From Escherichia coli (GTDB taxonomy: Bacteria; Pseudomonadota; Gammaproteobacteria; Enterobacterales; Enterobacteriaceae): a DNA stretch of 64,000 nucleotides. The notes under the pieces are model-generated. The model worked only from the letters and a program-made list of their open reading frames with translations, was not told the DNA's origin and made no database searches. A program made the translations under genes and the position numbers. Below are positions 3,153-56,738 of the stretch, piece after piece; positions within the stretch are counted from its first letter, which is position 1, and every line of letters begins with the position of its first letter. The stretch lies in the NCBI RefSeq assembly GCF_030013205.1, contig NZ_CP122648.1. One strand, 5' to 3'.

Positions 3153-4073
3153 ATGATGAATAATAAAGTCAGCTTCACTAACAGCAATAATCCAACCATC
3201 TCTTTGTCTGCAGTGATCTATTTCCCTCCAAAATTTGATGAAACCCGTCAGTATCCGGCAATTGTGGTATCTCACCCAGGTGGGGGCGTTAAAGAGCAAA
3301 CGGCTGGAACCTATGCCAAAAAACTGGCGGAAAAGGGATTTGTCACTATTGCTTATGACGCATCTTATCAAGGTGAAAGCGGCGGCGAGCCGCGTCAGTT
3401 AGAAAACCCATACATTCGTACTGAAGACGTCAGTGCCGTGATTGATTACCTGACAACGCTTTCTTATGTCGACAATACCCGAATTGGTGCGATGGGAATT
3501 TGTGCCGGTGCAGGATATACAGCCAATGCTGCAATTCAGGATCGCCGCATCAAGGCCATCGGTACTGTTAGTGCGGTCAATATTGGTTCGATGTTCCGTA
3601 ATGGTTGGGAAAACAATGTGAAATCTATTGATGCCCTACCATACGTTGACGCGGGTTCAAACGCCCGAACCAGCGATATTAGTAGCGGAGAATACGCCAC
3701 TATGCCACTGGCACCAATGAAGGAGTCCGATGCGCCGAACGAAGAACTGCGTCAGGCCTGGGAGTATTACCACACCCCTCGCGCGCAGTATCCAACAGCA
3801 CCGGGTTACGCTACTTTGCGCAGCCTTAACCAGATTATTACCTATGATGCTTACCATATGGCGGAAGTGTACCTGACTCAGCCGATACAGATTGTGGCGG
3901 GCAGCCAGGCAGGGAGCAAATGGATGAGTGACGACCTGTACGATCGAGCATCAAGCCAGGATAAACGCTATCACATTGTTGAAGGCGCAAACCATATGGA
4001 TCTTTATGACGGCAAAGTCTATGTGGCTGAAGCAATTTCAGTATTAGCGCCGTTCTTTGAGGAAACTCTGTAA
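3153..4073 (+). CDS. ycjY: Alpha/beta-hydrolase fold protein (dienelactone-hydrolase-like)
   Basis: ORF 3141-4073; start placed at MMNNKV. Recognised as YcjY by sequence recall. Confidence 0.85.
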   Translation: MMNNKVSFTNSNNPTISLSAVIYFPPKFDETRQYPAIVVSHPGGGVKEQTAGTYAKKLAEKGFVTIAYDASYQGESGGEPRQLENPYIRTEDVSAVIDYLTTLSYVDNTRIGAMGICAGAGYTANAAIQDRRIKAIGTVSAVNIGSMFRNGWENNVKSIDALPYVDAGSNARTSDISSGEYATMPLAPMKESDAPNEELRQAWEYYHTPRAQYPTAPGYATLRSLNQIITYDAYHMAEVYLTQPIQIVAGSQAGSKWMSDDLYDRASSQDKRYHIVEGANHMDLYDGKVYVAEAISVLAPFFEETL

Positions 4074-8145: not shown

Positions 8146-8180
8146 AATATGCCTGATGGTGTTGCACCATCAGGCATATT
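8146..8180. terminator. Bidirectional intrinsic terminator between convergent tpx and tyrR (16-bp perfect stem, 3-nt loop)
   Basis: AATATGCCTGATGGTG-TTG-CACCATCAGGCATATT sits between the tpx stop (8140-8142) and the tyrR stop (8186-8188). Confidence 0.7.
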
Positions 8181-8185
8181 CGCGC

Positions 8186-9727
8186 TTACTCTTCGTTCTT
8201 CTTCTGACTCAGACCGTATTCCCGCAACTTATTGGCAATCGCGGTATGCGAAACGCCCAGGCGTTTTGCCAGTTTGCGCGTGCTGGGATAATTGCGATAA
8301 AGCTGGGTTAATACCGAGCGTTCAAAACGGCTGGTGATTTCGTCCAGCGAACCTTCCATCGCATCTTCGCCCACGGCTACCGTTGCGGCGTCATAATCCG
8401 GTAACAAAATATCCTGTGGACGCAGCTCATAACCGTCCAGTTGTGTCAGTGCGCGATAAATAGCGTTCTTTAACTGCCGCACATTTCCCGGCCACGCATA
8501 ACGCGTAAGTACAGTATTCAGGTCAGCGGCCAGTTTCGGACGCGGCACGCCCTGCTCGTCGGCAAAGCGGGCGACGAACAGCTCGGTTAACGGCATGATG
8601 TCCTGCGGACAGTCACGTAGCGGCGGCAGATTAAGCGTCAACACGTTCAGACGATAATAAAGATCTTCACGGAACACGCCTTTTTGCACCAGTTCGACAA
8701 GATTCTTCTGCGTCGCGCAAATCACCCGCACATCGACATGCACCTCATGGTCTTCGCCAACCCGACGGAAAGTGCCATCATTAAGGAAACGCAGTAATTT
8801 CGCCTGCATCCGTGGTGACATCTCACCTATTTCATCCAACAGCACCGAACCACCGTTCGCCTGCTCAAAGAACCCTTTCTTCCCTTCCGGAGCATGACCA
8901 AACAGTTCACTCTCGACCGCATCTTCCGGTATAGACGCACAGTTCAGCGCCAGATAGGGTTTGCCCGCGCGTGGGCTTGCCTGATGACAGGCATATGCAA
9001 AGAGATCTTTTCCGGTGCCGGTATCACCGGTTATCAGCAATGGCGCGCTTAGCATCGCCAGTTTCTGCGCCTGTTCGACAACATGCTTCATTTTCGGGCT
9101 GACGGCGACAATTTGACTGAAGGCGCTGACGTCCTGGGCGGCGACATTTTGCAACTGACGACCCATACGAATCGTTGATCGCAACATCACCACCGCACCG
9201 GTCAGGACGTGTTGATCATTTTCATCCTGAAGATAAACAGGCGTAATCTCCATCAGGAAATTCTGTCCATTAATAACGACATGCTCGTTATGGGAATCCT
9301 GCGGTTCGCTTTCCAGCCAGCGTAAAAAATTAAAGCCGTTAATCAATTGCGCGGCGGTATGGTTGCGCAGGCGATCCAATTTTTGCCCAAAAAGCTGACA
9401 GCTCGCCGGGTTCGCCATATCCACTTTGCTTTTCATATCGACAGAGAGCACAGGTTCAGGCAACGCTTCCAGTAACGCGCTCAACGCCAGATGCTCACGT
9501 TCAGAAGGCATCCACGGGACAGTACGGACATCGGTAACACCTGCAATACGGCGTATTTCGGCCATCAGACTGCTGAAACTCTCAAACTCCAGTTCAGCAA
9601 AATTGAGGTAGATTCGCCCAATGGGATCAATCTCAATACCGCGTAAATCAATGCCTCTTAGCACGAGTAGATCGAGTAATTCGCGGGTCAGACCGAGTCG
9701 GTCTTCACAAAAGACTTCCAGACGCAT
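8186..9727 (-). CDS. tyrR: Sigma54-type enhancer-binding-protein-family regulator TyrR
   Basis: ORF 8186-9754; start placed at MRLEVFCEDR to give 513 aa. Recognised by sequence recall. Confidence 0.9.
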   Translation of the reverse strand: MRLEVFCEDRLGLTRELLDLLVLRGIDLRGIEIDPIGRIYLNFAELEFESFSSLMAEIRRIAGVTDVRTVPWMPSEREHLALSALLEALPEPVLSVDMKSKVDMANPASCQLFGQKLDRLRNHTAAQLINGFNFLRWLESEPQDSHNEHVVINGQNFLMEITPVYLQDENDQHVLTGAVVMLRSTIRMGRQLQNVAAQDVSAFSQIVAVSPKMKHVVEQAQKLAMLSAPLLITGDTGTGKDLFAYACHQASPRAGKPYLALNCASIPEDAVESELFGHAPEGKKGFFEQANGGSVLLDEIGEMSPRMQAKLLRFLNDGTFRRVGEDHEVHVDVRVICATQKNLVELVQKGVFREDLYYRLNVLTLNLPPLRDCPQDIMPLTELFVARFADEQGVPRPKLAADLNTVLTRYAWPGNVRQLKNAIYRALTQLDGYELRPQDILLPDYDAATVAVGEDAMEGSLDEITSRFERSVLTQLYRNYPSTRKLAKRLGVSHTAIANKLREYGLSQKKNEE

Positions 9728-9797
9728 GGGAACCTTCACCTGAAAAAAGAACAATTAATATGATGATATGACACTATTTGGATAGCAGGAAGGTTTC

Positions 9798-9815
9798 TGT
9801 CAACAATCATTGACA
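9798..9815. promoter_or_regulatory. Candidate TyrR box (TGTCAA-N6-TTGACA) in the tyrR upstream region
   Basis: Palindrome fits the TGTAAA-N6-TTTACA pattern; tyrR is known to be autoregulated. Assignment of this particular site is inference. Confidence 0.4.
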
Positions 9816-9874
9816 CAAAGACGGAAAAACGGGCACTTCGGCGTAAAGATATCCGGTCAGCACCCGATATTGCA

Positions 9875-43618: not shown

Positions 43619-44425
43619 ATGATCGAAACGCTGCTTGAAGTGCGTAATTTAAGTAAAACGTTCCGCTACCGGACCGGCTGGTTTCGTCGTCAGACCGTAG
43701 AAGCGGTAAAACCCTTGAGCTTTACGCTACGTGAAGGCCAGACACTGGCGATCATTGGTGAGAATGGTTCTGGTAAATCCACGCTGGCAAAAATGCTGGC
43801 GGGAATGATAGAACCTACCAGCGGCGAGTTATTGATTGACGATCATCCGCTGCATTTTGGCGATTATTCCTTCCGCAGTCAGCGTATTCGCATGATTTTT
43901 CAGGATCCTTCGACCTCGTTGAATCCCCGTCAACGTATCTCGCAAATTCTGGATTTTCCACTGCGTCTGAACACCGATCTGGAACCTGAACAGCGTCGCA
44001 AACAGATTATTGAAACGATGCGTATGGTTGGGCTGCTACCGGATCACGTCAGTTACTATCCGCATATGTTGGCACCCGGGCAAAAACAGCGTCTGGGGCT
44101 GGCGCGCGCGCTGATATTGCGCCCAAAAGTCATTATTGCCGATGAAGCCCTCGCCTCACTGGATATGTCGATGCGTTCGCAGTTGATTAATCTGATGCTT
44201 GAGTTACAGGAAAAACAGGGCATTTCGTATATTTATGTTACCCAGCATATCGGAATGATGAAGCACATTAGCGACCAGGTGCTGGTGATGCATCAGGGCG
44301 AGGTTGTCGAGCGAGGCAGCACCGCAGATGTGCTGGCATCGCCGCTGCATGAACTCACCAAACGGCTGATTGCCGGTCATTTTGGCGAGGCATTGACGGC
44401 GGATGCGTGGCGTAAGGACCGTTAG
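43619..44425 (+). CDS. sapF: Sap ABC transporter ATP-binding protein
   Basis: 268-aa ORF with Walker A GENGSGKST. Confidence 0.9.
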   Translation: MIETLLEVRNLSKTFRYRTGWFRRQTVEAVKPLSFTLREGQTLAIIGENGSGKSTLAKMLAGMIEPTSGELLIDDHPLHFGDYSFRSQRIRMIFQDPSTSLNPRQRISQILDFPLRLNTDLEPEQRRKQIIETMRMVGLLPDHVSYYPHMLAPGQKQRLGLARALILRPKVIIADEALASLDMSMRSQLINLMLELQEKQGISYIYVTQHIGMMKHISDQVLVMHQGEVVERGSTADVLASPLHELTKRLIAGHFGEALTADAWRKDR

Positions 44426-44432
44426 TGTTTTG

Positions 44433-44469
44433 CACCTCATCCTGACAGGGCCCCCCTCAGGATGAGGTG
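44433..44469. terminator. 13-bp perfect-stem hairpin between convergent sapF and the MFS gene; T-rich on the sapF side
   Basis: CACCTCATCCTGA ... TCAGGATGAGGTG with an 11-nt loop; abuts the MFS stop (44474-44476). Confidence 0.6.
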
Positions 44470-44473
44470 TTCA

Positions 44474-45637
44474 TTACTTTTGATTGTCGATTCTGGTGAG
44501 AGCAACCAGCAATGCCAGCGTATAACACACCGTAATTGCCAGACTCATTTTTAACAGTGTTTCTCCGCCAATTCCCGACAATGGCGCGGCTATACCGCCG
44601 AAGACAAACATGCTCATCCCCATCAACGCAGACGCCGTTCCAGATTCCTGCGTCCCTACTGCACTCATAGCCTCTGCCCCGCCAACAGTGCCGATGCCGC
44701 TACAAAATGCGATGGTGAAAAATAATGCCACCAGTGCCGGAATGGGCAATTGTATCCATGCGCATAAGACCGTGAGCATTGCACACAAAATTGCCGCTAT
44801 CAGGCCACCTCGCAACAATGTCATCGCGTTAATCCGTCGCGCCAGGCGCGAGAAGATCCATGAAGCAATGATAAGTCCGATGCCGTTAAGGCCAAACACC
44901 AGGCTAAATTGCATTGGACTAAAGCCAAATTCCTTCTGCAACACGAACGACGAAGAGCCGATATATGCAAACAAACCGGCCAGCATAAAACTTTGAATCA
45001 GGCAAAAGCGCATAAAACGGCGGTTCTGCACCACGCTTCGTCCGGTTAATAGCAATGATGAGCCCCTTTTATTTTCTGGCAAGGTCTCATTAATAAATAA
45101 CAGGCAGCCCAGCAACAGTACGGTGCTAATTTCAGCCATTACCCAGAATAAAGTGCGCCAGTCAAAAGTGCTGACAATGTACCCGCCCAGCACTGGCGAC
45201 AACACCGGTGCCAGGCCATTCACCGTCATTAACAGCGCAAAAAACTGGGTCAACGTTACTCCCTGATATTTGTCACGAGCAATAGAACGAGAGAGCACCG
45301 AACCACCCGCCCCCGCGATCCCTTGAATAAAACGCCAGACCACCAGCCAGTAAATATTGTTCGTTGTCGCGCACAAAATGGAAGAAACAATAAACAATAG
45401 CAACGACAAGATTAACGGACGTTTACGCCCTATTTTGTCGCTCAGAGGGCCAAATAACAGTTGTCCGACGCCAAGACCGATCAGTGATGCAGTCAGCGTT
45501 AATTGCGTTATGGTCGTGGTTGCCGCCAGTTGCTCAGACATCTCCGGCAAAGCCGGCAAATAAAGATCGGTACACATCGGGCCGATACCGGCTAAAAGAC
45601 CAAGAATCAATGCCCATGAAAGAGAGACTCTAGCCAT
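44474..45637 (-). CDS. MFS (DHA1, Bcr/CflA-like) efflux transporter; last gene of the efflux cluster
   Basis: 387-aa polytopic membrane ORF with MFS signature GPLSDKIGRKRP after the first helices; starts 8 nt after the OMF stop. Confidence 0.8.
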   Translation of the reverse strand: MARVSLSWALILGLLAGIGPMCTDLYLPALPEMSEQLAATTTITQLTLTASLIGLGVGQLLFGPLSDKIGRKRPLILSLLLFIVSSILCATTNNIYWLVVWRFIQGIAGAGGSVLSRSIARDKYQGVTLTQFFALLMTVNGLAPVLSPVLGGYIVSTFDWRTLFWVMAEISTVLLLGCLLFINETLPENKRGSSLLLTGRSVVQNRRFMRFCLIQSFMLAGLFAYIGSSSFVLQKEFGFSPMQFSLVFGLNGIGLIIASWIFSRLARRINAMTLLRGGLIAAILCAMLTVLCAWIQLPIPALVALFFTIAFCSGIGTVGGAEAMSAVGTQESGTASALMGMSMFVFGGIAAPLSGIGGETLLKMSLAITVCYTLALLVALTRIDNQK

Positions 45638-45645
45638 ATTATTCC

Positions 45646-47019
45646 TTACTTGAGTGATGACATGCCGCCGTCCAGCGACTGCCAGAGCGTGATTCGGTTT
45701 GTAAAATCAGTCAGTTGTAGTGCCAGCAGCGCCTGCTGTGCGCTCCACAAGCTGCGCTGCGCCGTCAACACGGTCAGGTAATCACCAACACCCGCCTGAT
45801 AGCGACGCAAGCCAACATCGACCGTTTGTTGCTCAGCTTTAACATACTGGCGCTGTGCATCCAGTTGCTCTTCAAGCGTGGTCCGCCGCGCCAGTGCGTT
45901 AGCGACATCTTTAAATGCGCTCTGAACGGTTTTTTCATAGGTGGCAATGAGTCCACGCTTTTGTGCTTCTGCGTAACGAAGCTGCGCCAGATTACTTCCG
46001 CCAGTGAACAGCGGTAATGTGACCGATGGCGTAAATGACCAGATCTGCATTCCGTGGCTGAACAACGACGACAATGCGTCACTGCCAACACCAGCGCTGG
46101 CAGTCAGCGAAATCGTCGGAAAAAAGTTAGCCCGCGCCGCGCCAATATCGGCATTGGCGCTCTTCAAATTATGTTCCGCTTCCTGGATATCCGGGCGACG
46201 CAGCAGAACGTCAGATGACACTCCCGCAGGAACCAGACTTATCATTTGTTCCGGCAGGCTTTCCAGTGTTCCCGGTAGCAGATTTTCCGCAAGCGTTGTA
46301 CCTGCCAGTAAGTTCAGCGCATTTTTATCCTGCATCACTTGTGTCTGATAGCTGGCAACGCTGGCGCGCGCTTGCTGATAAACACTCATCGCCTCACTGA
46401 CATCTGTCGCTGCCGCCGTGCCAACCTGTTGCTGGCGCTGGATAATTTTCAATGAGTTTTCTGCACTGGCCATCGTTTCTTTTGCCAGGGCCAGGTTGCT
46501 GTTATCAGCCGCCAGTGTCAGCCAGGCGGTGCTGATTTCAGCAATCAGCGTTAAACGAGTGTTCTGGGCTGTAAATTCACTGGCAAGCCAGGTTTCCCGC
46601 GCCGCCCGAGATAAACTCTGATTACGACCAAACAGATCTAACGTAAAACTGGACACCGTGCCGTCAGCCTCGGCAGTGGTTTCCGTACCATTCGCCAGCG
46701 AACGACTGCGGGTTGAACTTAAGGCCGCATTCACCGTCGGGAATAACGACGCATTAGTTTGCCCATAGAGCGCCCGTGCTGAGTCAATATCAGCAATCGC
46801 TTTTTGCACATCGCGGTTACTGTTCAGTGCAATAGTCACCACCTGCTGCAATCGGGGATCGTGGATCACCTGCTGCCAGTCATGGCTGATTGCCTTTCCC
46901 TGGCCCTGTGCTCCCGGCAAGGTCGCCGGGATTGGGGATTCAGGCGTGCTGTAGTGGGGCTCGAGCGAGACACATCCCGCACTCAACAGCACCAGAAAAA
47001 TAAGAGAACGACGCAACAT
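45646..47019 (-). CDS. Outer-membrane efflux lipoprotein (OMF, NodT/OprM family)
   Basis: 457-aa ORF with lipoprotein signal peptide (LLSAGC) and the long coiled-coil-rich body typical of OMFs. Confidence 0.8.
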   Translation of the reverse strand: MLRRSLIFLVLLSAGCVSLEPHYSTPESPIPATLPGAQGQGKAISHDWQQVIHDPRLQQVVTIALNSNRDVQKAIADIDSARALYGQTNASLFPTVNAALSSTRSRSLANGTETTAEADGTVSSFTLDLFGRNQSLSRAARETWLASEFTAQNTRLTLIAEISTAWLTLAADNSNLALAKETMASAENSLKIIQRQQQVGTAAATDVSEAMSVYQQARASVASYQTQVMQDKNALNLLAGTTLAENLLPGTLESLPEQMISLVPAGVSSDVLLRRPDIQEAEHNLKSANADIGAARANFFPTISLTASAGVGSDALSSLFSHGMQIWSFTPSVTLPLFTGGSNLAQLRYAEAQKRGLIATYEKTVQSAFKDVANALARRTTLEEQLDAQRQYVKAEQQTVDVGLRRYQAGVGDYLTVLTAQRSLWSAQQALLALQLTDFTNRITLWQSLDGGMSSLK

Positions 47020-47022
47020 AAC

Positions 47023-50000
47023 TTACTCCTGACGGCGCGGTTTACCGGCAAACAAACGTTTCACCAGTACAAAAAACAGAGGAACAAAGAAAATAGCCAG
47101 CAACGTAGCGGTCAGCGTACCGCCAATAATGCCCGTACTAATGGCGATGCGGCTGTTCGCCCCTGCGCCGGTTGCTATCGCCAGCGGCATTACCCCCGCA
47201 ATAAACGCCAGCGAGGTCATGATGATTGGGCGTAAACGAGTCTGCGCCGCGCGTAATGCCGCACGACTCAAGGAATAGCCCTCTGCAACCGCCGCTTCAG
47301 CAAATTCCACAATCAGAATGGCGTTTTTCGACGACAAGCCGATAGTGGTTAATAGCGCCACCTGGAAGTAAACATCGTTGTTTAAATCACGCATCCAGGC
47401 CGCCAGCGCCGCGCCAAGAAGCCCCAGAGGGATCACCAGAATGACCGAGAACGGGACTGACCAGCTTTCGTACAGTGCTGCAAGGCAGAGGAAAACCACC
47501 AGAATAGAAACTGCATACAGACTCAATGCCTGACCGCTGGCCAGTTTCTCCTGCAATGACAAACCACTCCAGGCCCAGGTTGTTCCCGCAGGAAGACTGT
47601 TTGCCAGTTCCTCCATTTTTGTCATTGCATCGCCGGAACTAAAGCCAGTCGCATTTTCCCCCTGAATTTCATAGGCTGCCGAGCCGTTGTAGCGCACCAG
47701 TCTTTCCGGTCCATACAGCCAGCGGGTGGTCGCAAAAGCAGAGAATGGTGTCATGGCGTTATCGCTGCCGCGCACAAACCATTTACCTAAGTCTGACGGC
47801 GCGGAACGAAATTCGCTGTCGCCCTGAATGTAGACTTTTTTCACACGACCACGGTCAATAAAGTCATTCACATAAGTACCGCCCCACGCACTGGACAGGG
47901 TGTCGGTGACATCATTCAAACTCAACCCTAATGACACCACTTTATTGCTATCAATATCTACCTGCAATTGCGGCATTTGTGGCAAATCATTGGCGCGTAC
48001 AGAATGTAACTCCGGACTTTGATTCGCTTTTTCTATCAACTGATTACGCATTTGCAGCAGTGTTTCACGATCGGTTCCACCGTTAGCTAACAATTCAAAC
48101 GTAAAACCATTGCTTTGCCCCAGCCCATCAACGGCTGGCGGCGTCATCGCAAATACCGTGGCATCACGAATTGTGCCCAGCTCTTTGGTTGCCCGTAGGG
48201 CGATAGCCTGGGCGGTGTTTTCTGCCCCTTTACGTTGAGACCAGTTTTTCAACGAAACAAACGCCATCCCGGTGTTCTGTCCGCTGCCGCTAAAACTGAA
48301 ACCATCAACGGTAAAGATGACATCGGTATTTGCTTTCTCGTTAATCAGGAACCAGTCAACAATCTGGCGATTCACTTCTGCTGTACGGGCAGCGGTCGCC
48401 CCGGCCGGCAGCGTGTACTGCACCATGATTTCGCCCTGGTCTTCAGTGGGTAAGAAACTGCCCGGCAGTTTCCACATCATCAGGGCCATTCCACCACCCA
48501 GTACGACATAAAGCCCCATCGTTCGAGCAGCACGGCGCAGGACATAAATTACGCCTCGCTGATATTTATCTTCAGTACGGCGGTAAAAGCGGTTAAATGC
48601 GCCAAAAAAGCCTTTTTTATGTGGCGGAACATGCTGGAGGACGGAACCGCACAGGGCGGGAGTCAAGGTCAATGCCACTACCACGGAAAGCAGCATTGCG
48701 GAGATAATGGTTATCGAAAACTGACGATAAATTACCCCCGTAGATCCCCCAAAGAAGGCCATAGGCAGGAATACGGCTGACAACACCAGCGCAATGGCAA
48801 CCAGTGCGCCAGAAATCTCGCCCATTGATTTTTCCGTGGCTTCACGCGCGGGCAACCCTTCGTCACGCATAATGCGTTCGACGTTCTCCACCACCACAAT
48901 GGCATCGTCCACCAGCAAGCCGATCGCCAGCACCATTGCAAACAACGTCAGGGTATTAATCGAATAGCCAAACAACGCAAGAACGCCGAATGTGCCCAGC
49001 AAAACGACGGGGACAGCTAACGCCGGAATCAGTGTGGCACGCAGGTTTTGCAGGAATAAATACATCACGCAAACCACCAATACGATGGCTTCAAACAGCG
49101 TCTGAATTACGTCCTCTACAGAGATTTTAATAAATTCAGTGCTGTCTTTCGGGTATGCGATGTCGTATCCCTGCGGCATGTTCCGCTGGAATTCGGCAAT
49201 CTTATCCTTGACCAGCGTCGCCGTATTCAGCGCATTCGCACCGGGCGAAAGCATTACAGCAACCCCGGCAGACGGGTGACCGTTAAGTTTGCCGATAGCG
49301 GTATAATCTTCACTGCCCATCTCAACGCGAGCCACATCTTTTATACGAACAACTGCGCCGTCTGACTGGCTTTTCACGATAATATTTTTGAACTGATCCA
49401 CCGTCTGCAAGCGAGACTGCGCACGTACCGTTGCGGTCAGTTGCTGAGTATTCGGTGAAGGCAATGCCCCTATTTTCCCGGCAGTAACCTGCACGTTTTG
49501 CGCTTCAATAGCACTTTGCACGTCTGAAGGCATTAGCGAGTAAGACGCCAGTTTGGCCGGGTCAAGCCAGATGCGCATAGCGTATTCCGCGCCAAAGACT
49601 TGCAGACTCCCCACACCTTCAACACGCGCCAGCGGGTCCTGAACGTTACTAACCAACCAGTCGGCGATATCCGAACTGGAGGCTTTGTCAGTGGTGTCAT
49701 ACACGGCAGCAATCAGCAAAAAGTTGCTTTGTGATTTCTCCACCGTAACACCCGTTTGCTGCACTTCGCTGGGTAGGCGCGACTCCGCCTGCTGAATTTT
49801 ATTCTGCACCTGAACCTGTGCAGTATCTGGATCGGTACCTTGTTCAAAGGTCACATTAATACTGACCGAACCATCAGAGCTGCTGGTTGAGCTGAAATAG
49901 AGTAAATTATCAAGCCCAGTGAGTTGTTGCTCGATAACCTGAGTCACGCTGTTCTCCAGCGTTTCGGCAGAAGCACCAGTATAAGTGGCTGAAATTTTAA

Positions 50001-50130
50001 TGGTCGGTGGCGCAACGTCAGGATATTGTGCGACGGGCAATGTGCGAATAGCCAGAATCCCCGCCAACATAATCAAAATGGCGATAACCCAGGCAAAGAC
50101 CGGGCGGCGAACAAAAAAGCGCGAAAACAT
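47023..50130 (-). CDS. RND (HAE1, AcrB/MexB-like) inner-membrane efflux pump
   Basis: 1035-aa ORF with strong recalled similarity to AcrB blocks (MFSRFF..RPVFAWVIAI..., VQVQNK..., GLLVDDAIVVVENVER, NDVYFQVALLTTIGLS). Start overlaps the MFP stop (TGATG). Confidence 0.85.
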   Translation of the reverse strand: MFSRFFVRRPVFAWVIAILIMLAGILAIRTLPVAQYPDVAPPTIKISATYTGASAETLENSVTQVIEQQLTGLDNLLYFSSTSSSDGSVSINVTFEQGTDPDTAQVQVQNKIQQAESRLPSEVQQTGVTVEKSQSNFLLIAAVYDTTDKASSSDIADWLVSNVQDPLARVEGVGSLQVFGAEYAMRIWLDPAKLASYSLMPSDVQSAIEAQNVQVTAGKIGALPSPNTQQLTATVRAQSRLQTVDQFKNIIVKSQSDGAVVRIKDVARVEMGSEDYTAIGKLNGHPSAGVAVMLSPGANALNTATLVKDKIAEFQRNMPQGYDIAYPKDSTEFIKISVEDVIQTLFEAIVLVVCVMYLFLQNLRATLIPALAVPVVLLGTFGVLALFGYSINTLTLFAMVLAIGLLVDDAIVVVENVERIMRDEGLPAREATEKSMGEISGALVAIALVLSAVFLPMAFFGGSTGVIYRQFSITIISAMLLSVVVALTLTPALCGSVLQHVPPHKKGFFGAFNRFYRRTEDKYQRGVIYVLRRAARTMGLYVVLGGGMALMMWKLPGSFLPTEDQGEIMVQYTLPAGATAARTAEVNRQIVDWFLINEKANTDVIFTVDGFSFSGSGQNTGMAFVSLKNWSQRKGAENTAQAIALRATKELGTIRDATVFAMTPPAVDGLGQSNGFTFELLANGGTDRETLLQMRNQLIEKANQSPELHSVRANDLPQMPQLQVDIDSNKVVSLGLSLNDVTDTLSSAWGGTYVNDFIDRGRVKKVYIQGDSEFRSAPSDLGKWFVRGSDNAMTPFSAFATTRWLYGPERLVRYNGSAAYEIQGENATGFSSGDAMTKMEELANSLPAGTTWAWSGLSLQEKLASGQALSLYAVSILVVFLCLAALYESWSVPFSVILVIPLGLLGAALAAWMRDLNNDVYFQVALLTTIGLSSKNAILIVEFAEAAVAEGYSLSRAALRAAQTRLRPIIMTSLAFIAGVMPLAIATGAGANSRIAISTGIIGGTLTATLLAIFFVPLFFVLVKRLFAGKPRRQE

Positions 50131-51251
50131 CAGGCGTTGCCTCCATTAGCCTGAACTTCAACAGCCTTGACGGTCTGCCCTGAAGTGACTTTGGCAGAAC
50201 CTTCAACAATCAGTCGGTCGCCGTTGTGCAGGCCGTTCAGCACCAGCCATTTATCACCATACGTTTCTCCCGTTTCGAGCGTTCGCTGCTCTACTTTATT
50301 GTCTTTATTCACCACCAGCGCAGTTGCATTGCCTTTAGCATCGCGCGTGACGCCCTGTTGCGGCGCGAGAATAGCGTCTTCCATCACGCCTTCATCGACA
50401 CGAGCGCGAACAAACATTCCCGGTAATAACTGCTGTTGTGGATTGGGGAAAATCGCCCGTAATGTCACCGAACCGGTAGACTCATCTACAGCGACTTCGG
50501 TGAGTTCCAGACGCCCTTTTTCGCTGTAGGTTGTGCCATCTTCCAGAATAAGTGAGACGCTCATGGTGTCACTGTTGGTCGCCAGTGACTGTTTACGCAG
50601 ACGTAATAAATCGACACTGGAGCGAGTGAGGTCGACATACATTGTCTCCAGACCACGAATAGTCGTTAACGCTGTATCTTGCGACGCGGTCACCAGTGCG
50701 CCAGGGGTTACCGACGAAATGCCAATTCGCCCTGAAATCGGTGCGGTTACCGTGGTCCAGTCAAGATTAATGCGCGCAGTTTCCAGCGCGGCTTTTTTCG
50801 CCTCTACACTGGCTTTATCTTGTGCACAGGTAGACTGAGCATCATCAGCATCCTGTTGTGAAACACCGTTCTCTTTCACCAGTCGGGCATAACGCTGCGC
50901 TTTCTGGCAATCGGCTTTTACCAGTGCCTGTGCTTGTTGTAATGCTGCCCGAGCTTCATTCCATGCAGCCTGATAACTGGCCGCATCAATCTGGTAGAGA
51001 GGCTGTCCAGCCTTGACCAGATCCCCTTCCTTAAATAAGCGTTTCTGGATAATTCCCCCAACCTGCGGACGTACTTCAGCACTGAGCGCAGCACTGGTGC
51101 GTCCGGTTAATTCACTGACTACCGAGACCGGTTGAGATTTGACTGTAACAACGCCGACTTCTGTTTCTGACGGGGATGAATTGTTACTTTGCGTATTATC
51201 ACAACCAGATAAGAGCAGCATTGCCACTACAGATGTTGCTATATACTTCAT
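50130..51251 (-). CDS. Periplasmic membrane-fusion lipoprotein (AcrA/MexA family)
   Basis: ORF 50130-51284; start placed at MKYIATSVVAMLLLSGC (lipobox, GGAG 8 nt upstream). Confidence 0.8.
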   Translation of the reverse strand: MKYIATSVVAMLLLSGCDNTQSNNSSPSETEVGVVTVKSQPVSVVSELTGRTSAALSAEVRPQVGGIIQKRLFKEGDLVKAGQPLYQIDAASYQAAWNEARAALQQAQALVKADCQKAQRYARLVKENGVSQQDADDAQSTCAQDKASVEAKKAALETARINLDWTTVTAPISGRIGISSVTPGALVTASQDTALTTIRGLETMYVDLTRSSVDLLRLRKQSLATNSDTMSVSLILEDGTTYSEKGRLELTEVAVDESTGSVTLRAIFPNPQQQLLPGMFVRARVDEGVMEDAILAPQQGVTRDAKGNATALVVNKDNKVEQRTLETGETYGDKWLVLNGLHNGDRLIVEGSAKVTSGQTVKAVEVQANGGNA

Positions 51252-51278
51252 TATTTTCTCCAGGGTGAGAAATACCCT

Positions 51279-51298
51279 CCTCATTAAAATTAATGAGG
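51279..51298. promoter_or_regulatory. Perfect inverted repeat CCTCATTAA-aa-TTAATGAGG 28-47 nt upstream of the MFP start; candidate operator
   Basis: Read from sequence; 9-bp arms, 2-bp spacer. Confidence 0.35.
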
Positions 51299-51335
51299 AT
51301 ATGTCAGGGATATTCAGTTATAACGAACCCGCATC

Positions 51336-51399: not shown

Positions 51400-51966
51400 T
51401 TATTTATTTATCAACATACTAACAATATCCTGATATATTTCCTGCAGATGTTGTGGATCGCTTTTTTGCGGTGTTAAACGACGATAAACCGTACCTTCCA
51501 TCATGGTAGCAAACACTTCAACGCAGCAACGAATGTGCTCGTCGCTAAGATGGGGATGCATTCTTTTCATATGTGCACAACCGTTAGCGAACATTCTGGC
51601 GTCAGCTTCTTCAAGCATTGCCATAACCCGCGGGTTGCGTGTGGCTTCTGCAGCCACTTCCAGCATCAGCGCGTCGTCGTCCTCATTTAAGGATTTACGC
51701 AAGGCAAGGACTTCCGGGAAGTGATCGGTACGCGCGTCAATGTCCATTTGGGCAATACGAAAGTCGATGATACGGCGAACCATCTCTTCAATAATGGCGT
51801 CTTTGTTGGCGAAGTAACGATATATCTGACCCACGCTAAGCTGAGCTTCGCTGGCAATTTGCGACATACTGGCGGCATGAAACCCGCAGCGACGAAAACA
51901 CCGACGGGCGGCGTTAATGATTTCATCCTGACGCTGTTTGTGGCGTATCTCCAGCTTGCTGGTCAT
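51400..51966 (-). CDS. TetR/AcrR-family transcriptional regulator, co-oriented with and upstream of the pump genes
   Basis: ORF 51400-52065; start placed at MTSKLEIRHK (AGGAGA 5 nt upstream) so the HTH (AARRCFRRCGFHAASMSQIASEAQLSVGQIYRYF) sits at the usual N-terminal position. The longer 221-codon version would read through the palindrome at 51992-52009. Confidence 0.75.
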   Translation of the reverse strand: MTSKLEIRHKQRQDEIINAARRCFRRCGFHAASMSQIASEAQLSVGQIYRYFANKDAIIEEMVRRIIDFRIAQMDIDARTDHFPEVLALRKSLNEDDDALMLEVAAEATRNPRVMAMLEEADARMFANGCAHMKRMHPHLSDEHIRCCVEVFATMMEGTVYRRLTPQKSDPQHLQEIYQDIVSMLINK

Positions 51967-51991
51967 TTCTGTCTCCTGGCCTATCACTTGG

Positions 51992-52009
51992 TGAGAATGA
52001 TCGTTCTCA
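51992..52009. promoter_or_regulatory. 18-bp imperfect palindrome TGAGAATGATCGTTCTCA 26 nt upstream of the proposed tetR start; candidate autoregulatory operator
   Basis: Two mismatches from perfect dyad symmetry. Confidence 0.35.
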
Positions 52010-52443
52010 TTTTTGCTGATTATACGTTTCTCCAAAGTAATGGAAAGTATTTTTATCTTATTCATGGTGCATATTCTGATAATGAAGAGATTGTGGAGAT
52101 TATGTGAAGATAGTTGACAATATTAAGTTGGGGTCAATTCATCAGAAAGGCTGCTACTTGTTGTCGCCAGTTCTGTTTTCATCATCAAACTTATCGGAGC
52201 TAATACGAATAGTTTCAGAGTCAGATTCTATAAGATATTCCCCCAACCTACCCCTTGCAGGCGTCAAGAGTAGATAACGCAAAATGCTCTGTACCGCAGC
52301 TTCTCTCCGGTACAGAAAGCGCAACTATAGCCACCCACAGCCAGGTTGATTATAATAACCGTTTATCTGTTCGTACTGTTTACTAAAACGACGAATCGCC
52401 TGATTTTCAGGCACAACAAGCATCAACAATAAGGATTAAAGCT

Positions 52444-53232
52444 ATGGGTTTTCTTTCCGGTAAGCGCATTCTGGTAACCGGTGTTGCCAGCAAACTGTCC
52501 ATCGCCTACGGTATCGCTCAGGCGATGCACCGCGAAGGAGCTGAACTGGCATTCACCTACCAGAACGACAAACTGAAAGGCCGCGTAGAAGAATTTGCAG
52601 CTCAATTGGGTTCTGACATCGTTCTGCAGTGCGATGTTGCCGAAGATGCCAGCATCGACACCATGTTCGCTGAACTGGCGAAAGTTTGGCCGAAATTTGA
52701 CGGTTTCGTACACTCTATTGGTTTTGCACCTGGCGATCAGCTGGATGGTGACTATGTTAACGCCGTTACCCGTGAAGGCTTCAAAATTGCTCACGACATC
52801 AGCTCCTACAGCTTCGTTGCAATGGCAAAAGCTTGCCGCTCCATGCTGAATCCGGGTTCTGCCCTGCTGACCCTTTCCTACCTTGGCGCTGAGCGCGCTA
52901 TCCCGAACTACAACGTTATGGGTCTGGCAAAAGCGTCTCTGGAAGCAAACGTGCGCTATATGGCGAACGCGATGGGTCCGGAAGGTGTGCGTGTTAACGC
53001 CATCTCTGCGGGTCCGATCCGTACTCTGGCGGCTTCCGGTATCAAAGACTTCCGCAAAATGCTGGCTCATTGCGAAGCCGTTACCCCGATTCGCCGTACC
53101 GTTACCATTGAAGATGTGGGTAACTCTGCGGCATTCCTGTGCTCCGATCTCTCTGCCGGTATCTCCGGTGAAGTGGTCCACGTTGACGGCGGTTTCAGTA
53201 TCGCTGCAATGAACGAACTCGAACTGAAATAA
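52444..53232 (+). CDS. fabI: Enoyl-ACP reductase (NADH)
   Basis: 262-aa ORF; recognised by sequence recall. Confidence 0.95.
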
Positions 53233-53375
53233 TCGTTCTGTTGGTCAAGACGGGCGGCGTTCTGCCGCCCGTTATCTCTGTTATACCTTTCTGATATTTG
53301 TTATCGCCGATCCGTCTTTCTCCCCTTTCCGCCTTGCGTCAGGATAACGATTTCCTTTACGACCAAGGAGCGCCC

Positions 53376-56505: not shown

Positions 56506-56738
56506 TCTCCTTTCACGGCCCATTCCTCATGAATGGGCCGTTTATTTCCCCGCTCCACCTTCGTCATATCCCGGCAGATTTTTAACTGACTTTCGTTTGA
56601 AAACTGGCGTTTTTCCAAAACTGGATTACAAATAAATATATAAAAAAACAATGCGTTTAGCCGCCGTTAATTTCATGTAAGTCATGTTGTTCCTTTTATT
56701 TAACCGCGGACTCCGCTGTTAACCGGAGGATATGCATC

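Follow-up and report, generated by a model that had tools for sequence, protein, structure and literature searches.

A probably non-functional inverted repeat at the junction between the eefRABCD cluster and the fabI promoter in Escherichia coli

The window analysed here is a stretch of 64,000 nt of Escherichia coli DNA (contig NZ_CP122648.1). It contains an efflux cluster that is the published eefRABCD operon, inserted between sapF and fabI. The sapF gene, read from the + strand, has its stop at 44425. It is followed by five genes on the - strand: eefD, an MFS pump (44474-45637); eefC, an outer membrane factor (45646-47019); eefB, an RND pump (47023-50130); eefA, a periplasmic adaptor (50130-51251 in RefSeq, up to 51284 as the longest open reading frame); and eefR, a TetR-family regulator and the first gene of eefRABCD (51400-51966; PMC12817139). 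On the + strand, fabI encodes the enoyl-ACP reductase (52444-53232) and is followed by yciW and then rnb. The assignments come from open reading frames and RefSeq annotation, together with Pfam for fabI and all the eef genes. No other genes are annotated in the cassette.

The genes eefR and fabI diverge from a shared spacer of 477 nt, delimited by the eefR ATG at 51966 and the fabI ATG at 52444. The earlier note on this DNA gave the interval as 380 bp, a value that came from the longest eefR reading frame, starting at 52065. The RefSeq product has 188 amino acids; the longer frame would swallow a -10 element and an operator-like palindrome, both conserved across genera (51992-52024). The spacer is 100% identical to that of E. 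coli strain PCN033 and others. None of its small open reading frames is convincing, and the frame of one, of 57 amino acids, would be broken by a 13-nt deletion in E. whittamii.

A published study (Microb Genom 2026, PMC12817139) reports eefRABCD at the sapF-fabI locus of phylogroups B2, D, E, F and G, with ycjD in its place in A, B1, C, ST69 and ST182. The window has the same genes, in the same order and position, with the pump genes on the strand opposite to fabI. We find the eef-type spacer in 2034-2043 of 5426 complete E. coli genomes and ycjD (DUF559), on the fabI strand, in the remaining ~3,390, a split that agrees with the published dichotomy. The main text of PMC12817139 does not give the base-level junction, the repeat described below, the EefR operator or the promoter differences. 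In a scan of 48 EefR loci, one genome per species, the cluster adjoins fabI only in Escherichia (E. coli, E. whittamii, E. albertii and Escherichia sp.); in Enterobacter, Kluyvera, Lelliottia, Kosakonia, Leclercia and others it is sited elsewhere.

The probable eefR promoter has a conserved -10 element on the - strand, CGTATAAT, whose TATAAT hexamer spans 52024-52019. Immediately downstream of it lies a near-perfect 18-bp palindrome, TGAGAAYGATCRTTCTCA, at 51992-52009. In most eefR-like loci with a match from residue 1, both elements are found 37-44 nt upstream of the start codon, and the palindrome is conserved in Escherichia, Enterobacter, Kluyvera, Lelliottia, Kosakonia and other genera (loci L005-L049). 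A -10 element followed by a palindrome is the classic layout of a TetR autoregulatory operator, and the operators of AcrR and QacR are examples of such palindromes in this family. Judging from its conservation, the 51992-52009 palindrome is the probable EefR operator. Some E. coli haplotypes carry G52003A, which makes the palindrome perfect.

At the other end of the spacer, a sigma-70 promoter of fabI is predicted on the + strand at 52328-52356, with 10 of 12 consensus matches: a -35 element TAGCCA (52328-52333), a 17-nt spacer and a -10 element TATAAT (52351-52356). The inverted repeat that is our main subject lies 11 nt upstream of this -35 element, about -45 to -75 from the implied start site. 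Its left arm, TCTGTACCG (52288-52296), and its right arm, CGGTACAGA (52308-52316), enclose an 11-nt loop, CAGCTTCTCTC (52297-52307), and form a perfect 9-bp stem with five G-C pairs. Both the sequence and a pattern search bear out the stem and loop first described in the earlier note; a repeat search gives an alternative description of the same element, with 12-nt arms, one mismatch and a 5-nt loop. As a 45-nt RNA, the window allele folds with -15.4 kcal/mol (z = -3.4 against shuffled sequences). In a 66-nt context, z is -2.2 for the + strand; for the - strand, with a fold of -23.9 kcal/mol, it is -2.5.

Counting perfect inverted repeats whose stems have 9 bp or more and whose loops span 3-20 nt, we find 13 distinct ones in the window. 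By chance, ~5.4 register counts (sd 3, maximum 16) are obtained when the window is simulated with a first-order Markov model. Because several such repeats arise per window by chance, a single 9-bp inverted repeat is by itself statistically unremarkable in 64 kb. Other perfect inverted repeats lie at 8146-8180 (16-nt arms), at 51278-51299 between eefR and eefA, and at 53250-53272 and 56515-56541; these last two, after fabI and rnb respectively, look like ordinary terminators.

Each arm sequence occurs once in the window, and the whole repeat is found at one place per genome in the 2043 eef+ genomes among the 5426 of E. coli. The repeat resembles the REP/BIME, BoxC and ERIC elements in being a small palindromic intergenic sequence, but a dispersed-repeat identity is rejected on copy number. 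The BoxC-like element that does stand at the corresponding position in the ycjD type recurs at a median of 17 places in each genome. The LexA box (CTGT-N8-ACAG), the FabR box and integron attC-type cores, compared by eye, misfit in spacing or sequence. A search of Rfam with 51900-52500 (E <= 10) returned only a meaningless miRNA match.

An inverted repeat in a divergent spacer beside a TetR-family gene also recalls the operators of that family. However, the repeat lies ~280 nt further from eefR than the EefR palindrome, has an 11-nt spacer between its arms and shares no sequence similarity with that palindrome. It is also absent outside Escherichia: nothing like it is seen upstream of eefR in ~40 non-Escherichia loci, and the hairpin thus does not travel with the eef cluster. 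Since the palindrome conserved across genera lies elsewhere, at 51992-52009, we reject the repeat as the EefR operator; with an operator-like palindrome already at the eefR promoter, the distant repeat is not needed for eef regulation.

The likeness to intrinsic terminators is that of a short intergenic stem-loop with nine pairs, five of them G-C. Yet the tails that follow the stem, AAGCGCAAC on the + strand and AGCATTTTGCG on the - strand, lack a proper T/U tract; only a displaced run of four U occurs on the - strand. No gene reads into the repeat, as eefR and fabI diverge, and no promoter-like site is found on the - strand to its right, so that it does not mark the 3' end of a transcription unit. 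A terminator scan of 51900-52500 on both strands detects no terminator-like site.

The stem is poorly conserved. Of 2043 eef+ E. coli genomes, 566 (28%) have the exact 66-nt sequence with its perfect stem; O157:H7, O145 and porcine ETEC are among them. In 1242 of the 2043 (61%), among which CFT073 and ABU 83972, the substitution G52310C introduces a C·C mismatch; the fold of this majority allele drops to -8.7 kcal/mol (z -1.2). Further stem alleles are G52296T and A52293T in the left arm and T52311A in the right arm. Among 26 distinct E. coli spacer haplotypes, 4 of the 18 stem positions are variable, each change breaking a pair and none being compensated. By comparison, the loop has 0 variable positions out of 11, the core promoter with the 5' UTR has 4 of 123, and the remaining eef-linked spacer has 26 of 325.

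In the sister species, the stem is reduced to 7 bp in E. whittamii (-8.2 kcal/mol, z -2.8) and degraded in E. albertii (-7.1 kcal/mol, z -0.5). Neither these species nor the haplotypes show the kept pairs and compensatory changes of a conserved structured element. The repeat is identical in another Escherichia species, Escherichia sp. MOD1-EC7003 (L007), and the other lineages differ from it at different positions. This suggests that the Escherichia ancestor had a perfect or near-perfect repeat, which has since probably been eroded independently in several lineages.

The position of the repeat follows from alignment with ycjD-type genomes. By BLAST, their homology with the spacer begins at 52321 with 98-100% identity, and in the K-12/BL21 subtype already at 52294 with 92.7% identity. 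The clear start at 52321 comes 5 nt after the end of the right arm, and the predicted fabI -35 element follows 7 nt later; together with the alignments, it places the breakpoint at 52317-52321. The sequence from this point on, GCAACTATAGCC..., can be aligned in both eef types (A and B), the three ycjD subtypes, E. albertii and E. whittamii. A second eef-type spacer, found in the GTDB representative of E. coli (L005), rejoins the common sequence at about 52314. At least three unrelated or barely related sequences thus stand upstream of the shared point: that of the window, that of L005 and that of the ycjD type. In L005, the central and distal spacer (9640-9840) is different and the repeat is absent.

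With breakpoints at 52321, 52294 and ~52314, the repeat sits on the junction, on its variable, cluster-linked side. The check proposed in the earlier note, alignment with genomes lacking the cluster, therefore supports its placement of the hairpin at the boundary between core sequence and efflux cluster, as homology ends at the repeat, the way it does at the edge of a variable cassette. Conservation of the hairpin in cluster-less fabI promoters would have spoken against that view, and the hairpin is absent there. The note had left two options, a regulatory element of fabI or a junction remnant. The location at the junction holds; a regulatory hairpin is disfavoured by a stem that is perfect in only 28% of eef+ E. 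coli, carries uncompensated breaks and is degraded in sister species, by the absence of terminator features, and by an operator of the regulator that lies elsewhere.

A part of the repeat may nevertheless have a counterpart in the ycjD type. There, the BoxC-like repeat ends 28 nt before the shared core, and these 28 unique nt align weakly to the loop and inner stem (CCGCAGCyT-sCTCCGGT, 52294-52311). For the K-12-type sequence, CCGCAGCCTGCTCCGGT, the alignment score is within the top 0.4% of window positions; for the other two ycjD subtypes, it is within the top 2.5% and 7.5%. The inner part of the repeat (CCGCAGC..CTCCGGT) is probably homologous to the ycjD-type sequence, and the outer part of the left arm, TCTGTA, is specific to eef-type genomes. 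In the ycjD-fabI spacer of the K-12 type (L002), the BoxC-like element is a G+C-rich dispersed repeat at 3935-3997, and a diverged direct duplication of the ycjD 3' end (GAGACGGTGCTGGAGAATATTC...) occupies ~3729-3895.

The exception to the shared boundary is a rare third arrangement, in two E. coli-like contigs of human-gut metagenomes (L136 and L073), in which the match starts only ~27 nt ahead of the fabI ATG. Up to there, another segment takes the place of the entire fabI promoter; it has a TATAAT of its own and, in the opposite orientation, an SMI1/KNR4 (SUKH-1) gene (Pfam E = 1e-9). In L136, FabI is 99.6% identical and a partial SapF fragment 100% identical. Both contigs are of low coverage and have frameshifts.

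Further changes make the eefR-fabI spacer a small hot spot. In E. coli AVS0968 (L058 2248-2945), an IS1 has taken the place of eefR together with the larger part of the spacer. It ends at ~52280, which leaves the repeat and the fabI promoter intact, and borders directly on eefA. The 13-nt deletion of E. whittamii lies directly left of the repeat. In Escherichia sp. MOD1-EC7003, ~166 nt are inserted in the spacer (~9570-9700), which look ERIC/IRU-like.

The left edge of the cassette also carries an inverted repeat, with 18-nt arms, at 44433-44469, flanked by the converging stops of sapF (44425) and eefD (44474). This is probably a terminator hairpin, of sapF or bidirectional. The K-12-type version, CACCTCATTCTGACAA...TTGTCAGAATGAGGTG (L002 3389-3433), has the same arms, apart from a paired T/C and A/G change, and a different loop. 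As the arms are common to both types and the loop is not, the left breakpoint of the cassette lies just beyond the 44433-44469 repeat. No target duplication and no terminal repeats link the two ends of the cassette, as they would in a mobile element or island.

Altogether, we consider the 52288-52316 repeat to be a real but non-functional, decaying inverted repeat that evolves neutrally (probability about 0.6). It would be the last ~30 nt of an Escherichia-specific spacer that arrived with eefRABCD or evolved beside it. The boundary 7 nt before the predicted -35 element would be set by the essentiality of fabI: rearrangements in the sapF-fabI hot spot would survive only if they ended shortly before the core promoter. 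Examples would be the cassettes of eefRABCD and of ycjD (the latter with its BoxC-like repeat), the IS1 insertion and the ERIC-like insertion. The shared sequence would then begin where it does because fabI is essential, and the repeat would mark the edge of constraint, having no activity of its own. Action as an RNA or DNA hairpin, as a terminator or as the EefR operator is not supported, and the repeat most likely has no function. Its DNA is the upstream part (~-45 to -75) of the eef-type fabI promoter, and its right arm would take the place of the FadR-like box of ycjD-type strains described below.

Some observations sit less easily with neutrality. The window allele folds clearly better than its shuffled versions, with the z of -3.4 given above, and an ancestor with a perfect or near-perfect repeat implies that the repeat persisted for some time. 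An invariant loop and an IS1-mediated deletion that halts just short of the repeat would also fit a role of the sequence itself in fabI promoter activity. A lineage-specific function may exist in strains with the perfect allele, e.g. O157:H7.

The clustering of breakpoints could alternatively have a cause in the repeat. The palindrome would then be the very site of exchange between the eefRABCD and ycjD segments, e.g. through breakage at the hairpin or illegitimate recombination, and its position at the junction would be causal instead of a by-product of promoter constraint. Three independent sequence types diverging within 52294-52321, the end of the IS1-associated deletion at ~52280, the E. 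whittamii deletion just left of the repeat and an inverted repeat at the left edge of the cassette all agree with such a scar. But selection for the essential fabI promoter explains the clustering equally well, and the left-edge repeat is probably just the sapF terminator, common to both types. Moreover, the two ends of the cassette are not joined by a target duplication or terminal repeats, and neither arm has a second copy in the window. A 9-bp stem is also far below the length known to provoke palindrome-stimulated breakage. We regard a recombination origin of the junction as unlikely.

A different class of explanation involves FadR. In ycjD-type promoters (K-12/BL21), a FadR-like box, CTCCGGTCGGACCTGGC, lies at -138 to -122 from the fabI ATG (BL21, L002 4011-4027), a place equivalent to window 52305-52322, the position of the right arm. 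A FadR weight matrix that we derived from seven published probe sites (PMC4259882) gives the box 8.6 bits, which ranks it within the top 0.024% of the 17-mers of the window; matches this strong are expected ~0.14 times by chance in a search of 300 nt. The box is invariant in three ycjD subtypes with differing flanks. The eef type has there CTCCGGTACAGAAAGCG, i.e. the right arm and its flank, and no high-scoring 17-mer of the FadR matrix over 52288-52322; the repeat does not follow the 17-bp CTGGTCNGACCTG-type consensus of FadR operators. The right arm shares CTCCGGT with the box, whereas the right half of the box, GGACCTG, is missing from the eef type.

FadR activates fabI in K-12 (My et al. 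2015, as cited in PMC6339880 and PMC8115981), and the K-12 operator, taken from RegulonDB as cited in PMC8115981, holds the same place upstream of the promoter as the repeat does. The first base of this RegulonDB site, given as 1,345,411 in PMC8115981, maps to -115 from the ATG, or window 52329; a 17-bp site running upstream from -115 would overlap the FadR-like box. The base reported as mutated at that coordinate (G) differs from the reference base, so that the extent of the site as published there is uncertain and we infer its link to the box.

A related element occurs in a group of non-Escherichia Enterobacteriaceae, represented by metagenome contigs (L091, L096, L098, L100, L123, L142, L154 and others) in which fabI directly follows sapF. 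Identity is 93-94% for SapF and ~95% for FabI. The spacer of ~125 nt contains a palindromic AGTGGTCGGATTAACT at ~-111 from the fabI ATG, invariant between variable flanks. Direct adjacency of sapF and fabI is probably the ancestral state, with insertions in Escherichia. The distribution within Escherichia suggests that the eef type is the older one; the wider family suggests that the FadR box is ancestral.

Two other matches to the matrix fall in the spacer. The one at 52198-52214 (AGCTAATACGAATAGTT, 11.4 bits) is a probable false positive, as its CTGGT core is without the GG and the match loses strength in E. whittamii. The other, ATCTGTTCGTACTGTTT at 52365-52381, just downstream of the predicted fabI -10 element, is a weak match of 7.4 bits; it is present in the Escherichia promoter types examined, with one substitution in E. 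whittamii. It aligns where other Enterobacteriaceae have their -10 element, which suggests that the Escherichia fabI promoter has shifted upstream.

The repeat could accordingly be read as the vestige of a FadR operator, CTCCGGTACAGAAAGCG being a mutated homologue of CTCCGGTCGGACCTGGC and the left arm its complement by chance; what would matter then is that FadR activation of fabI was lost, or never acquired, in eef+ lineages. The shared CTCCGGT stands at the same distance from the core, within 1 nt, the box is both high-scoring and invariant in the ycjD subtypes, the palindromic AGTGGTCGGATTAACT recurs in other Enterobacteriaceae, and FadR regulation of K-12 fabI, as cited in the two papers above, is published. 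Against this, the matrix score is modest, given the ~0.14 chance matches expected in 300 nt, and the base reported as mutated disagrees with the reference. In addition, E. albertii, E. whittamii and a further Escherichia sp. also have the box-less eef type, so the box may be derived in the ycjD type. We find a vestige quite unlikely.

Equally improbable to us is that the arms are half-sites of a dimeric or tetrameric transcription factor that modulates fabI or couples it to eefR. A position just upstream of the predicted -35 element is typical of activator sites, the ycjD-type promoters have their FadR-like box at the same place, and the loop and flanks are invariant in E. coli. However, an arm substitution is found in 72% of eef+ genomes, with five different arm variants, and the repeat is not conserved in E. 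albertii. Half-sites 20 bp apart would be atypical, and the arms neither resemble the EefR operator nor match the FadR matrix.

Finally, a weak bidirectional terminator or insulator against antisense or divergent transcription between the two promoters is highly improbable: the stem is followed on the - strand by AGCAUUUUGCGUUAU, with a short U-run 3 nt after it, and folds well on that strand in the 66-nt context, but there is no T-run on the + strand, the scan is negative on both strands, nothing obvious would have to be terminated from a right-hand side that has no - strand promoter, and shuffling yields folds as stable as that of the majority allele.

Leaving the neutral reading of the repeat as the preferred one, the comparison of the two promoter types raises a point about fabI itself. 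The FadR-like box belongs to promoters of the K-12 type (A/B1/C), and another form of it to other Enterobacteriaceae; none is present in the eef+ lineages (B2, D, E, F and G), to which ExPEC and O157:H7 belong. It is conceivable, if doubtful, that the promoter was rewired in a lineage-specific manner, such that the FadR activation of fabI known from K-12 would fail in eef+ strains and the eef-type upstream sequence would supply a FadR-independent input. That upstream sequence includes the repeat and a conserved AGAAAG(C/A)GCAAC.

As a hairpin, the repeat matters little, and the gene cluster that it adjoins has already been described. The junction between the eefRABCD and ycjD types can now be placed to the base, 7 nt ahead of the predicted fabI -35 element, and a probable EefR promoter and operator are located. 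The two major groups of E. coli differ in the DNA that directly precedes the core promoter of fabI, an essential gene of fatty-acid synthesis. If this difference alters the control by FadR of fabI, the target of triclosan, regulatory results obtained in K-12 would not be transferable unchecked to pathogenic lineages.
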